Below, one piece after another: positions 1,761 through 37,283 of a stretch of 64,000 bases of DNA. Within the stretch, counting starts at the first letter, position 1, and every line of letters starts with the position of its first letter. Origin of the DNA: Octopus vulgaris (Eukaryota); assembly GCA_951406725.2 (NCBI GenBank), contig OX597835.1:46376001-46440000 (forward strand), written 5' to 3'. Below the pieces are notes generated by a model that worked only from the letters and a program-made list of their open reading frames with translations, did not search any database and was not told the DNA's origin. Position numbers and translations under genes: made by a program.

Positions 1761-2114
1761 TCCAGCTATGACCATTTGGGTCATCTGTGTTCTCTTCATT
1801 CTTCAGACTCTGAATTTGGAACTGATTTCACAAAAGTGTATATATTTAACGAAAACATGAAATCGCGAATGGTGGTTGGCTGTGGCGTAACGTTTTCGCC
1901 AGTTTCGGCACTTCAGTATGACTTGTAATTCATTCATCGGTAATTTATTCCTTGGTTCCACTGGGACAAAACCGGATTTGTACGCAGAACGGAAAATGCT
2001 GGAAGTTTTACAGCAACTGATGATTGTTTTATAAAATGTGGGAAGTTGTATAACCGCTGATAATTGTTTTGAAATTAGGCAGAAGGTCAGCAAATTTGAA
2101 GGAGAAGATTCAGT

Positions 2115-2340
2115 CGAGCTGGCAGAAACGGTAGCACGCCGGGCGAAATGCGTAGCCGTATTTCGTCTGCCGCTACGTTCTGAGTTCAAATTCCGCCGAG
2201 GTCGACTTTGCCTTTCATCCTTTCGGGGTCGATAAATTAAGTACTAGTTACGCACTGGGGTCGATGTAATCGACTTAATCCGTTTGTCTCCCCTTGTTTG
2301 TCCTCTCTGTGTTTAGCCCCTTGTGGGTAGTAAAGAAATA
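2115..2340 (+). mobile_element. tRNA-derived SINE family A, LINE-tailed subfamily
   Basis: GAGCTGGCAGAAACG head, B-box GAGTTCAAATTCC, central GACTTTGCCTTTCATCCTTTCGGGGTCGATAAATTAAGTA domain, 3' tail GCCCCTTGTGGGTAGTAAAGAAATA; many copies in the window. Confidence 0.9.
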
Positions 2341-3549
2341 GGTACTTTATTTTATCTACTCCTGTGTGATTAAAATCAAAGTTGACCGAAGCAAGATTCG
2401 AACCCAGTTATAAAGAGACTGTCAAGCATTTTGTCCGACTCTCTGTAGATTCTGATTCAGGCAGCGATTTTGAAAAGAGGAACAGTCGGTTTCAATGACA
2501 TTGGTACTTCGTTGTTACTTATTTTAATGATTGCCGAAAGGATTACAGGCAAAGTTGATGTCAGTGAAATTTTGAACGGAGAGCGTAAAGCGTTGGAAGG
2601 ACATGAGATGATGAGAGAAGAACAAAAACAATGAATAAAAGAAACGAATAAAGAAGAAGAATGTGTATAGATAGCAAAGTAGATAGATAGACAAGAAGAA
2701 AATGAGAAAAAATATCGAAAGAAAGACAGGTGAGAGAGGAAACAACGCAGGAAGAAAAACACAAAAGAAAACTGAAAAACTGACAGAGAAATTCATAAAA
2801 AGAGTAAGTGGACCGTTAGGAGGAGGAGGAGGAGAGAGAGAGAGAAATATTATTAAAATTGTCTACCTTTAATGATGATAGATGATCTAATGAGAGCGAT
2901 AAAGGAATTAAGATGACTAAATAATTTTTTTCTCTCTCATACAACAGTAAAGAATTTATTGAAATAGCAAAAATAAACGCTGAATTCTAACCACAAGATA
3001 TAATTATATCATTTTAGTAAAGGTGAACACCACTTTGGCGCGCTGTGACGTGTGTCTGAGTGGTTTGGTTTTGTTAAAGTAAAGGTTAATGACTGCTCTG
3101 TTGTTTTGTAGTGAAGTAGACTACGCGGATTTGCTGTTATGATTGTTGTGATTGTTTAGGCCTGGTCAATGTTGAATGAGTCGTCTATTAGCAAAGACAT
3201 GCACCACTTGTGATCATCCAGTCTTTTCCCAATGTGAAGATAACTAGGACCACATTAGCAAAGGTGATCTCCTTCAGAAACTAAGATTTGGGGGAGATTT
3301 GGTTATTGCTTTTAGCGGGTTACGCAACCCAGCTCGCAACCCAGCTGATGTAATTTAACCCCAGGTCAGATTTATGATTAAAGATATTCTAGGCGTGACT
3401 ATCTCGTCTATTACCAATACAAAGAGAACCTGAACCGTATCGTCCAATATGTCTCTTTGCACTTTACAATCTAATACAAGGAAAATTTAGCTGCTATGAG
3501 CTGGCAGAAATGTTAGCCTGCTGAGCGAAATGCTTAGCGGTATTTCGTC

Positions 3550-6929: not shown

Positions 6930-7832
6930 ATGTAGTTTGAATTTACGAAAAAACGAAAGACGAAGACAGATGTCTAAGCAACAAGCGGGTGTATTTAACG
7001 CTTGAGAATGTGAGAAAGTATTTTACGTTTCGAGCCAATGCTCTTCAACAGAAAGAAACACGAGAAAATAAAAAGAGAGAGAATAAAGAAAGCTTTAGTG
7101 GCTAGCAGTCAATCATGGCGATGGCCGGACAGAGGTGGTCAGACAGGACAGCTAGGAGGAAGGGGAAATAATAAAGTAGTAGTGATCCCAAAACGAAGGT
7201 GCACGTACGTGTGCATGTGAGAGCGTGTATGTGCGTGTGGTTAAGGGCTGGTGCTTGCATAGGTGTGTGGATGATAGTGTGGGTGCTGAGAAGTGGTCAA
7301 TGCTAGTGTATGCATGGTGGTGCGATGTAGTGTGGTGATGTATGGTATGTTGTGTTGTGGTTTGGTGATGTATGTTGCGGTGTGACATGATTTGGTGTGG
7401 TGGTATTGGGGTGTGGGAGGTGTAAGGGTGGGGTGCTTTTGAGAATGCAAGGGTGGGGTGTGGGTTTGAGTGGTATGTGTGGGGTAGGGGTGGTGCATGT
7501 GGGAGTGGGATGTGAGAGTGGTATGTGTGGGGTGGAGGTGGGATAGGATGTATAGGATGGTGGGTTTGGGAGGTGTAGGGTGTGGTAACGATGGAGGGAT
7601 GACGATGAAGGGAGAGGATGGAAGGGAGAAGGTGTCAGAGCAAGAGAAGAGAGGAGAGGTGGGTGGGAGTAAAGAGAGGATATAGGTGTGAGAGGAAGAG
7701 AGAGAAGAGAAGAGGGGAGGGGATTTGAGTCCATGTGGCGCAAAGGAGCGAAGAGAGAAGATTATTTCCTGTTCACAGCGAAGACGGGAGTCCGGATGGC
7801 CCCTGTACAAGGACAATCCGAATACAGATAGG
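6930..7832 (-). mobile_element. Penelope-like element 3' fragment: GIY-YIG C-terminus, simple-sequence 3' UTR, pseudo-LTR with HHR, ending at (TA)n
   Basis: Minus-strand SRLRCEQEIIFSLRSFAPHGL matches the R...E..I..L....P.GLN end of PLE endonucleases; HHR motif at 7021-7055; homologous pLTR at 37321-37572. Confidence 0.75.
7021..7055 (-). ncRNA. Minimal type-I hammerhead-like motif (CUGUUGA core variant)
   Basis: UCUUU-CUGUUGA-A-GAGC(AUUG)GCUC-GAAA-CG-UA-AAAUA. Confidence 0.6.
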
Positions 7833-8438
7833 TGTTATATATAAAGGGCTTTACCACATCCAATAACAAGGTTTTAGTCGCGCTCAGGTTATAGTAGGAG
7901 ACACTTGCCCAAAGTGACATGCGGAGGGAACGAACTCCGAAATGAACTTGGAAAGCAAACTTCTCACTACGCAGCAACGCCTGGACTACGGCGAGCTTTC
8001 ACGAGGATTTATCTTCTATTTCTAGCAAATCTTCTGACTGCGTGAACGCTTCCTCTAAATATGTGCCAGCAAGAAAGAAAGAGAGAGAGAGGGGGAAGGC
8101 GAAGATATATGCGTCTTGCATGTATATGTGTACACGTGATATATATAATTGTGTTTGTCTTTCTGTTAATGTGTGTAAATGTGTAAGTAAATTTAACAGA
8201 ATATTGGAAATGTCGTGTGAGTGTTTGAAATATAATGAACAAAACAGAATAGAAGAGAACATTTTTTTTAATTAAAATTAATAACTGAGATAATTATTTT
8301 ATCGGTTTTGAATTATCTAGAAATTTTCTAAATTCCAGATAATTCGATATAAAACAATAAATGGCAAAAACATTGTTTAAATGTCAACGTAAATACAAAA
8401 TACGCACGCACTAGCATATACGTTGCAATATATATATA

Positions 8439-8482
<44 letters not shown>

Positions 8483-8640
8483 TATATGTGTGTGTGTATT
8501 TATACATATATATATACATAATTCTTCTGCAGCACACACAAACGTATATACGTACACAGACACACACACACAAACACACACACATTTTATATGCCTGTAT
8601 ATATGTATATATGTATGTATATATATATACACGTATATAT

Positions 8641-35000: not shown

Positions 35001-36307
35001 CAAATACATATACAAATACATATACATATATACGCATGCACTTAACTGGTTTCGGATTTATTGGTTGTCAAAATATACATTATGAGCAGCGTGAAGCTGT
35101 GTCGTAATATTGTATGATTTTGTGCTTTTTTTTCTGGTCGATGTCTTCAAAATCGTTTGCTTTTACAGAGAGAATGTGCCCGAGATCATTATCTGTGGTC
35201 AAAACGGTAAGAACTGAAATGTCACCTTTAAACTATTTGCCGTGCATTACTCTTATCAATAACTTATGTAACAATTTGCGGAAATATCTCAAGTGAATAA
35301 AAAATAATTATTTGCTTCCTGCATTTTCACAACATCCATTTAAATGTGGTCTATATATATAGGACAAATATGAATAGATATGAAAATGGTGGCTGAGATA
35401 GAAAAGAGTGTGTGGGTGTATGCGCGTGTGCGTTAGTGCATGCGCGTGAACCCACACGCATGCGCTCAGGCTACATTAAGCAAAGCAACAAACACCTCAG
35501 ATGCACACACAAATATCGTTTTGAACTACATTTTCGTACGTAAGATTGCATCTTTCCTTAAAACAGTTTATTTAACACAAAATGTCATCACGCCTTGGCT
35601 AAATACTATCATAGCTGCTCATACAGCTACTGGACGCAATCAACAGTTGAAATCAGCTGACATTTTTTCACCTTTCATAATTATTGTACTGAGTGTCATA
35701 TGATACATCTCCAAAACTAAAAGTTTACGTGACCCTCCCACGTGTCTATCATACGAGTAACCTCAACCATCAATCTGTACTTTAATTGATAGTAATTTGT
35801 GCTACGTTGTCTCTTAAAAATCAACGTTTCGTACAACGGACCGAAAAATTGTTTATGACAGAGTATGTTACTCATAAGATTCACCTTTGAAAATCAACAC
35901 TTTAAAATCAGTTAAGTTCATATACATTTATGTATGTATGTATGTTTGTATGTATGTATGTATGTATAAACATCTATTAAAACTGATATGCACAAACGTG
36001 CATGCATATACATCCTTGATATTAGGAGATTACGCAAGAATAGTTAGAGGCCATGTTAGAGCTTAGATGTTTCGAATTCTTAAAAAATGTAACTTCTTAA
36101 TCAGTTTATGATACTCCTGTATCTGTTGTGATAGGTAAGATAAAACCATTCTACGAACATCAATAACAAGGCGGACAAAGGTGTATGAAATATATCTACA
36201 TTAGTTGTTACATAACCTTATTGCAATCGGCTATTACAGATATTTCAGTGAAGTGAGGGTGCTATAACGCACAATATGTAATTAGGTGAAAGCATTATGA
36301 GATAATA

Positions 36308-36860
36308 ATAAATCTCAACCTAGAAACTGCAGTCCGTGCGTATCACTTAGGTTGACGAGGGAAGGGTGACCTCCCTTTGCAAATACCATAAGGGCACAGA
36401 AAGTGTGCCTAAAGCCAGCTGGAGACGATGTTCTCCTGAGACTACAAGCTACAGTAACACCCACCCTTAGTGGTTAGCCATATTGAGATGGCAAGTATAC
36501 CTCACATTGTCGTGCAGTTACTCTTTATACCTCGTTCAGAGCTTTATTATTGCTTGCATACAGTTTTTCGAGATCAGTGACGAAAAGTTACTGGAAAAAC
36601 GATATAAAGGATTTGCATTGGAACACCTTTTCATCGAAAACCGGTGATTGTCGTACGCTGATGACAGGTCAAAACCTAGAAACTGCAGTCCGTTCGTATC
36701 ACTTAGGCTGACGAGGGAAGGGTGACTTCCCTTTGCAGATACCATAAGGGCACAGAAAGTGTGCCTAAAGCCAGCTGGAGACGATGTTCTCCTGGGGCTA
36801 CAACCTACAGTAATACCTACCTTTAGTGGTAAGCCATATTGAGATGGCAAGTATACCTCA
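36308..36860 (+). mobile_element. Retrozyme-like insertion: ~1.5 tandem copies of a 356-nt non-coding HHR monomer with 15-bp TSD
   Basis: Direct repeat 36317-36508 / 36673-36864; flanking CATTATGAGATAATA at 36293-36307 and 36861-36875. Confidence 0.85.
36644..36702 (+). ncRNA. Type-I hammerhead ribozyme with extended stem I
   Basis: GUGAU-UGU-CGUACG-CUGAUGA-C-AGGU(CAAA)ACCU-A-GAAA-CUGCAG-UC^CGUUCG-U-AUCAC; predicted cleavage after 36690, homologous site at 36334. Confidence 0.85.
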
Positions 36861-37283
36861 CATTATGAGATAATATCACAAGAAAGCAAAGAGGCGAGCT
36901 GAGTTCAAATTTCGCCGAGGTCAACCTCACATTTTACCTTTTCACGGTCGATAAAATAAGTACCAGTTGAGAAGTAAGGTCGATATAGTTGACTAAACTC
37001 TCCCTTGAAATTGCTGATCTTGTGGCCAGGTTTAAAACCAATGTTACAGGAAAGCCCATCTGTAAACATAACATCAATGGACAGAAATTCCACAAGAGAC
37101 AAACACAAAGCTCATCAGTCCAATGCCAAAAAGAGTTTCTAAGTTAAAAACTGCAAAAGGGAATGTCAACTAAACACTAAAGTATGGAGTCCTACCTATC
37201 GATTACATTTCAATTGTTTGCTTTGCTTATTAAATATAGGATTTTGAAAATTAAAGGTGTTTGTTTACTTCCTGCATGTCTGT

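Follow-up and report, generated by a model that had tools for sequence, protein, structure and literature searches.

Metazoan non-LTR retrozymes (Cervera and de la Pena 2020, PMC7229834), among them those of the mussel with units of 350–390 bp, are the closest described relatives of the element analysed here. The Octopus vulgaris sequence shares with them a non-coding tandem unit of about 350 nt with a GC content below 50%, a type I hammerhead, target duplications longer than 4 bp and the presence of Penelope-like elements in the same genome. The unit (356 nt, 44% GC) falls within the range given for retrozymes, 150–450 bp and less than 50% GC. It differs from those retrozymes in being scattered over the genome in copies of no more than about 2.8 units, with no long arrays, and in the C.A mismatch at positions 10.1–11.1 of its hammerhead; cleavage of its RNA is predicted. 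No cephalopod appears in the main text of that article, as far as the available part goes. Unit size, hammerhead covariation, multicopy state and target duplications support the placement of the element, as originally predicted, among the retrozymes known from other animals, a class that would thus extend, as expected, to a cephalopod.

Two further systems bear on how such a unit may be mobilised. Xenopus retrozymes (Li, Clavereau and Pollet 2026, 10.64898/2026.07.22.740005) likewise co-occur with Neptune-type elements, and the same dependence has been proposed for them; that work, in the part available, reports homology to Penelope terminal repeats (pLTRs) in Xenopus with no molluscs sampled, whereas the octopus link rests on insertion anatomy. 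The PAc element of Anolis (Frangieh et al. 2024, PMC11167929) cuts AT-rich DNA on both strands and starts reverse transcription from two adjacent internal sites. The octopus copies resemble PAc insertions in having two adjacent internal starts that define a tail, both target strands cut and extended, AT-rich targets and uncleaved RNA as the main template. PAc, however, codes for a protein of its own and needs no homology for priming, while the octopus unit has no ORF and shows 4-nt overlaps at its ends.

A hammerhead repeat with an internal snRNA-type promoter is known in newt satellite 2 (Coats et al. 1994, cited in PMC2220036); unlike that one, the octopus promoter is a prediction, based on a motif that occurs in U2 genes too. 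Finally, LINEs of the Tx1 clade choose single sites in multicopy sequences (PMC4494074): Tx1L inserts in Tx1D, Keno in U2, Kibi and Koshi in microsatellites and Tx1-Mar in Mariner-N4, and a figure legend in the same source gives unnamed 'satellites' as targets. The main text of a paper on Octopus vulgaris repeats (PMC13282606) does not contain the words 'hammerhead', 'ribozyme' or 'retrozyme', and no report of the octopus family was found in the portions of the literature covered by our search. Neither were its inferred priming sites, its predicted promoter or its targeting by LINEs, although repeat databases (Repbase/Dfam) and supplements may hold them.

Architecture of the element and its family

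The window (the whole 64-kb stretch of DNA analysed, in whose numbering positions are given) contains a 192-nt direct repeat, 36317–36508 and 36673–36864, of 94% identity and with a period of 356 nt, in agreement with the repeat of about 190 bp noted originally. The features of the copy are listed in Table 1. The 15-bp target-site duplications originally proposed at both ends were confirmed, as CATTATGAGATAATA is found at just these two places and the window holds no other match when one mismatch is allowed (chance expectation 0.04). The exact length of the duplication is ambiguous, because 4 nt on either side of it are shared with the element ends. The 13-nt 'filler' between the left duplication and the repeat is a templated 5′ inversion, the exact reverse complement of positions 205–217 of the family-majority unit (13/13). 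The description of the insert as starting within the ribozyme thus holds for the repeat, which begins at unit position 339, but the bases before it are this inversion. Likewise, the window copy does end within a unit, at position 174, but 3′ ends in the family are not random and fall at two fixed sites.

Table 1. Features of the retrozyme copy in the window.
Feature	Position	Strand	Remarks
Left target-site duplication, 15 bp	36293..36307	+	overlaps element end by 4 nt
Short 5′ inversion	36304..36316	-	copy of unit 205–217; stops at second RT start site
Partial unit, positions 339–356	36317..36334	+	3′ half of hammerhead core; predicted cleavage site 1 at its end
Single complete 356-nt unit, cleavage site to cleavage site	36335..36690	+	44% GC
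First preferred 3′ end (inferred RT start site), unit 172–174	36506..36508	+	26/51 copies end at 167–176
Second preferred 3′ end (inferred RT start site), unit 217–221	36551..36555	+	20/51 copies end at 216–221
ATCAGTGA, predicted snRNA-type proximal promoter element	36573..36580	+	60 nt upstream of 36633
Empty LINE target ATCGAAAACCGGTG	36633..36646	+	36633 is the predicted transcription start
Complete type I hammerhead	36643..36703	+	core 36658–36664 and 36679–36682; predicted cleavage after 36690
Terminal partial unit, positions 1–174	36691..36864	+	stops at first RT start site
Right target-site duplication	36861..36875	+	

The unit folds more compactly than its shuffled versions (z-score -3.2). 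Its longest plus-strand frame from stop to stop is of 74 aa, which bears out the absence of a credible ORF on that strand, and no ORF combining reverse transcriptase (RT) and GIY-YIG domains was found in the element or in the 64-kb window. Adjoining the right duplication lies a very common short repeat, probably a SINE (36876–36980).

A search of the genome (2.8 Gb in 227 contigs) with the 356-nt unit gave 3231 candidate places, of which 40 were scored. The exact hammerhead-core pattern matched 147 times and a 21-nt tag (unit positions 1–21) 436 times, against none in the reversed control in either case. In loci reaching 2.8 units, position 356 of one unit abuts position 1 of the next, in head-to-tail order, and no ORF intervenes. 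The window element therefore belongs to a dispersed multicopy family, and the copies show the variable 5′ ends and target duplications that had been anticipated. The expectation that the ends would not be fixed held only for the 5′ side.

Other retrozyme families, 70–95% alike mutually and with hammerheads of their own, are present in the genome (L097, bases 1850–3000, with a unit of about 390 nt, and L187–L206); the ATCAGT motif described below occurs in them too where checked. In one copy (L030, G000:C23:42842845-42843745) a 50-nt piece of the unit (300–350), which spans most of the hammerhead core, is tandemly amplified about 18 times.

The hammerhead motif

The motif comprises CTGATGA (36658–36664), a stem II formed by AGGT and ACCT and closed by a CAAA loop, GAAA (36679–36682), the stem III palindrome ACTGCAGT and a GTC ending at 36690. 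A second GTC, originally noted one period upstream, indeed ends at 36334. The core, the three stems and the palindrome of the predicted complete type I hammerhead are thus in place, but this only complete hammerhead of the window carries two mismatches. One is the C.A at 10.1–11.1, which it shares with most of the family; the other is a U.U in stem I that results from a G>T change at 36694, private to this copy (1/101 segments). In the form that joins 36690 to 36335 the family-majority stem I is restored, in line with the earlier proposal that the monomer would re-form a hammerhead over its junction. The Rfam models, with which the motif was to be checked, did not detect a hammerhead, neither at the gathering score nor at E≤10.

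The conservation pattern of the motif was examined in 41 aligned hammerheads of several subfamilies. Twelve of 22 base pairs change on both sides, a figure that none of 500 shuffles equalled (the shuffling takes no account of relatedness among copies), and slid controls give 2–4 pairs. The C3-G8 pair is swapped to U3-A8, a change reported to be active (PMC3088659, in the part available), in 10 of the 41 sequences, and stem III stays palindromic across the variants CTGCAG, CCGCGG, CCCGGG, CTATAG, CTCGAG and CTAG. The pair at 10.1–11.1 is missing in 26 of the 41. The minimum-energy fold of a single motif is not the hammerhead; when two motifs in the junction form are cofolded, the minimum-energy structure is a dimeric hammerhead (-39.5 kcal/mol, versus 2 × -18.1 kcal/mol). 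Dimeric hammerheads have been described for metazoan type I motifs (PMC4209133, in the part available), and on the folding model the octopus motif would cut mainly as a dimer, through the palindromic stem III. Two hammerhead-like motifs found elsewhere (L053, and the minus strand of L130) are unrelated to the retrozyme family.

Insertion anatomy and the probable connection with Penelope-like elements

In a set of 51 distinct copies, picked by the hammerhead or by the tag, 46 end at one of the two fixed internal sites of Table 1. About 46 nt separate these sites, which matches the Penelope 'tail' (PMC11167929, in the part available), while the spacing is unlike that of PAc. An inverted piece is found at the 5′ side of 15 of 29 loci picked by the hammerhead-core pattern, and 12 of these pieces start at 164–174 or 213–226, near the same two places. 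The copy in the window shows both, with its right end at the first site and its left inversion stopping at the second. Flanks of the retrozyme copies are often (TA)n, and duplications of 10–15 bp occur. Two fixed 3′ start sites together with 5′ inversions support the mobilisation by Penelope-like enzymes that the original prediction had put forward, and by analogy with the Anolis biochemistry the copies were likely inserted by a Penelope-like element.

In this mechanism the Penelope protein would make staggered nicks in AT-rich DNA, one per strand at a distance of about 15 bp, and reverse transcription would be primed inside the RNA at one of the two fixed sites. On one strand synthesis would start at position 174 and extend over 548 nt; on the other it would start at about 217 and stop after 13 nt, leaving the short inversion. 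The copied template exceeded one unit, as had been claimed.

The genome contains intact elements that encode a 781-aa RT with a C-terminal GIY-YIG domain and a Cys-rich linker, carry hammerheads and have (TA)n flanks; they are termed Neptune-type because of this layout (PMC8557442, in the part available). The hammerhead of one such family has the CCGA core variant with 10.1–11.1 unpaired, as in some retrozyme subfamilies. A young Neptune-type family (L142–L145) combines an intact 781-aa ORF with an upstream ORF of up to 479 aa, terminal repeats that are 99–100% identical and a U3-A8 hammerhead. Of 6136 candidates 150 were scored, and 37 GIY-YIG loci were compared with the unit, among them L129, which resembles a gene of the host. 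Thirty of these loci showed no terminal repeat homologous to the unit (best blastn E 0.34), and the other seven contained only a separate retrozyme fragment. We therefore infer the partner element, as these 37 loci have no DNA homology to the unit. A Penelope RT remnant beside L018/L096 was considered as partner and rejected, being decayed and having relatives of just 38–68% identity.

Until now the Penelope link of animal retrozymes consisted of co-occurrence and pLTR homology; the insertion anatomy adds two exact priming sites, and these could be tested with purified protein from the intact resident elements. Taken together, the element is probably a non-coding 356-nt hammerhead repeat of the animal non-LTR retrozyme type, with a likely snRNA-type internal promoter and likely insertion by a Neptune-type element.

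A predicted snRNA-type promoter within the unit

The motif ATCAGT lies at -57 to -61 in 23 of 25 U2 loci, and in the retrozyme at -60 from unit position 299, where the sequence begins with ATCG, as does U2. It is kept in 48 of 50 family segments, and the stretch that contains it is the most conserved one measured (0.99, versus 0.90–0.92 alongside). It also stands 58–59 nt upstream of the duplication made by the first LINE family (see below) in all seven junctions checked. In the two U2 loci that lack the motif, +1 is occupied by a LINE that shares 96% of its sequence with the second LINE family. A promoter of U6 type was discarded, since inspection by eye of 20 U6 upstream regions did not reveal ATCAGT at that spacing. 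The 6-nt motif and its spacing thus predict an internal snRNA-type promoter, from which transcription would start at 36633 (unit 299). The 5′ ends of the copies are less telling: 6 of 47 fall in 291–299, an equal pile lies at 231–240, and p is 0.005 for that interval and 0.40 for any interval.

Since this promoter lies upstream of the start site, only copies longer than one unit would carry it together with a whole hammerhead and an RT start, which is a possible reason for the copying of retrozymes as more than one unit.

LINE insertions at the predicted retrozyme start

The sequence beside several retrozyme copies is a LINE of 5 kb, in which ORF1 has a CCHC motif and ORF2 is composed of APE, RT and zinc domains. 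The best 30 of 240 candidate 3′ ends of this first LINE family are followed in 27 cases by the retrozyme family, in two by a related hammerhead repeat and in one by a duplicated target and another LINE; an exact pattern of the 3′ end placed 38 of 38 at the target (33, 2 and 3 in the same classes, assigned by eye). Full-length copies are bordered by a 14-bp duplication of unit 299–312, and most 5′-truncated ones have target sequence upstream and duplications of about 15 bp. The LINE copies are 94–98% alike and their host units 76–98% alike to that of the window. These values, and the upstream target kept by most truncated copies, indicate that the LINE insertions are independent events.

A second family (84% alike) lies at the target in 11 of 12 cases. 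In the third (n=28) a hammerhead comes next in 20, a target remnant in about 5 and neither in 3; its measured copies, of about 1.6–1.8 kb, seem to be without ORF2. LINE families of L1/Tx1 type thus insert at unit position 299, or a few bases after it, in other retrozyme copies. In a sister family (67–70% alike), which served as control, all 30 cases run into (TATC)n-type repeats and none into the retrozyme; the ORF2 piece in L063 belongs to this sister family.

These families are like the Tx1 LINEs of PMC4494074 in being APE-RT LINEs that occupy one site of a multicopy sequence, other transposons included, and at 38/38, 11/12 and about 25/28 they far exceed the 20% used there to define target specificity. 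Their target, a hammerhead retrozyme at its predicted start, is unlike those named in the available part of that source. The nearest solved structure to the LINE protein is L1 ORF2p and the nearest named relative of the LINE proteins is from Argonauta; the one match retrieved under a Tx1 name was fungal and auto-named (25%). A metagenome scan confirmed no relatives of the LINE, and an atlas search of its protein gave only clusters of generic endonucleases.

By inserting at this position the LINEs would borrow the retrozyme promoter, and pieces of them would sometimes be carried along in Penelope-type copies. In L101, L102 and L186 a truncated LINE 3′ end is joined to a hammerhead and a standard retrozyme 3′ end, with no upstream target, which suggests Penelope-type copying of a chimeric RNA, deletion being the alternative. 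A wider scenario is put forward tentatively, and we would give it less than an even chance. In it a Neptune element mobilises the retrozyme, which takes its upstream promoter along only if copying extends beyond a single unit; L1/Tx1 LINEs, including the form of about 1.6 kb seemingly without ORF2, would target the start across diverged retrozyme families and U2 by promoter context rather than by local sequence alone, would acquire a promoter as well as a 3′ end set by the ribozyme, and would hitchhike on Penelope-type copying. The LINE relatives form a natural target-switch series, from (TATC)n to the retrozyme start and U2 +1, which may be useful for retargeting studies of site-specific retrotransposons.

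Several arrangements of these LINEs were noted besides. The derivative of about 1.6–1.8 kb (L062, bases 6964–8546, L192, L201, L202 and L205) has an ORF1-like coding sequence and sits 21–35 nt upstream of hammerhead cores, where its copies are in some cases stacked in tandem. In L099–L100, L184 and L185, LINEs of more than one family follow each other head to tail, with the 14-bp target regenerated between them. The close relative (96%) of the second retrozyme-targeting family lies at the first base of U2 in 2 of 25 loci (L242 and L249, bases 1–1500). The sister LINE in (TATC)n (L149–L183) is very abundant, with 23034 candidates, and has an intact ORF2 of 1149 aa.

Nature of the element and of its template

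The copies might be truncated terminal repeats, or pLTR stumps, of an autonomous Penelope-like element absent from our sample. All their end features are those of Penelope insertions, Xenopus retrozymes are homologous to pLTRs (10.64898/2026.07.22.740005, in the part available) and the sample of Penelope families compared was small. We regard this as unlikely, however, given that no ORF interrupts the runs of directly joined units (356 to 1), which reach 2.8 units, that the only non-unit neighbours shared among the loci examined are LINEs at the target site, and that the sole Penelope RT remnant adjoining a copy, in L096, shows decay and lacks close relatives. An even smaller chance, a very slight one, is given to the reading in which the associated APE-type LINE acts as autonomous element, with the unit as a terminal repeat or SINE belonging to it. 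Full-length LINEs do have unit sequence on both sides, and LINEs have been named as possible mobilisers of retrozymes (PMC7229834, in the part available), but the LINEs are 94–98% alike and their host units 76–98% alike to that of the window, a relative 96% identical sits at U2 +1, retrozyme copies land in AT-rich DNA and not in the target of the LINE, and the 5′-truncated LINEs with upstream target and duplications of about 15 bp largely refute it. The hammerhead could also have lost its activity, or have arisen by chance within a SINE-like repeat of the ordinary kind, a reading favoured by the failure of Rfam to match it, by the mismatch at 10.1–11.1, by the absence of copies broken exactly at the cleavage site (see below) and by the Xenopus dimers, of which 8 of 9 assayed failed to cleave (10.64898/2026.07.22.740005, in the part available). 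It seems improbable to us in view of the compensatory changes in stems I and II, the U3-A8 swaps and the persistence of a palindromic stem III through six sequence variants.

A further reading, compatible with the retrozyme assignment preferred here, is that the copied RNA was a 356-nt circle, closed by ligation, round which reverse transcription passed more than once. None of the 100 copies listed breaks exactly at the cleavage site, the nearest ends being 2–4 nt upstream (the tag pattern leaves out copies starting at 2–21; L005 and L027 start at position 3). The cleaved linear monomer was rejected as template on this count, which points instead to uncleaved or re-ligated RNA as the usual one. 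Circular RNAs are known for the retrozymes of coral, mussel and axolotl (PMC7229834, in the part available). The two repeats of the window differ at 11 of 174 positions, always by alleles that are rare in the family; such private differences fit a single template copied twice, with repeats identical at insertion, as a circle would give. Rare alleles are also common to both units within L012, and likewise within L019, the longest copy among the 29 top loci reaches about 2.8 units, and the compact fold of the unit counts for a circle too. On the other hand, neighbouring units of L005, L006, L015 and L025 differ at 5–8 positions, and because the differences are common alleles, a circle alone cannot account for them without template switching or conversion. 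In 5 of the 29 top loci, a biased set, the 5′ ends lie at 292–302, where a linear transcript would start, and divergence within loci (6.1%) is barely below that between loci (8.2%). A linear multimer would fit as well as a circle, and we hold the circle to be nearly, but not quite, an even bet.

Of the sequencing runs listed with the repeat none is registered as RNA, and those presumed to be RNA are not counted as evidence of expression. Contigs from four of the latter cover the retrozyme and not its left flank; strand, ends and circles are not visible in contigs. The neighbouring common repeat (36876–36980) is deeper than the retrozyme in the contigs of all four runs, and LINE contigs are present in the same data as well.
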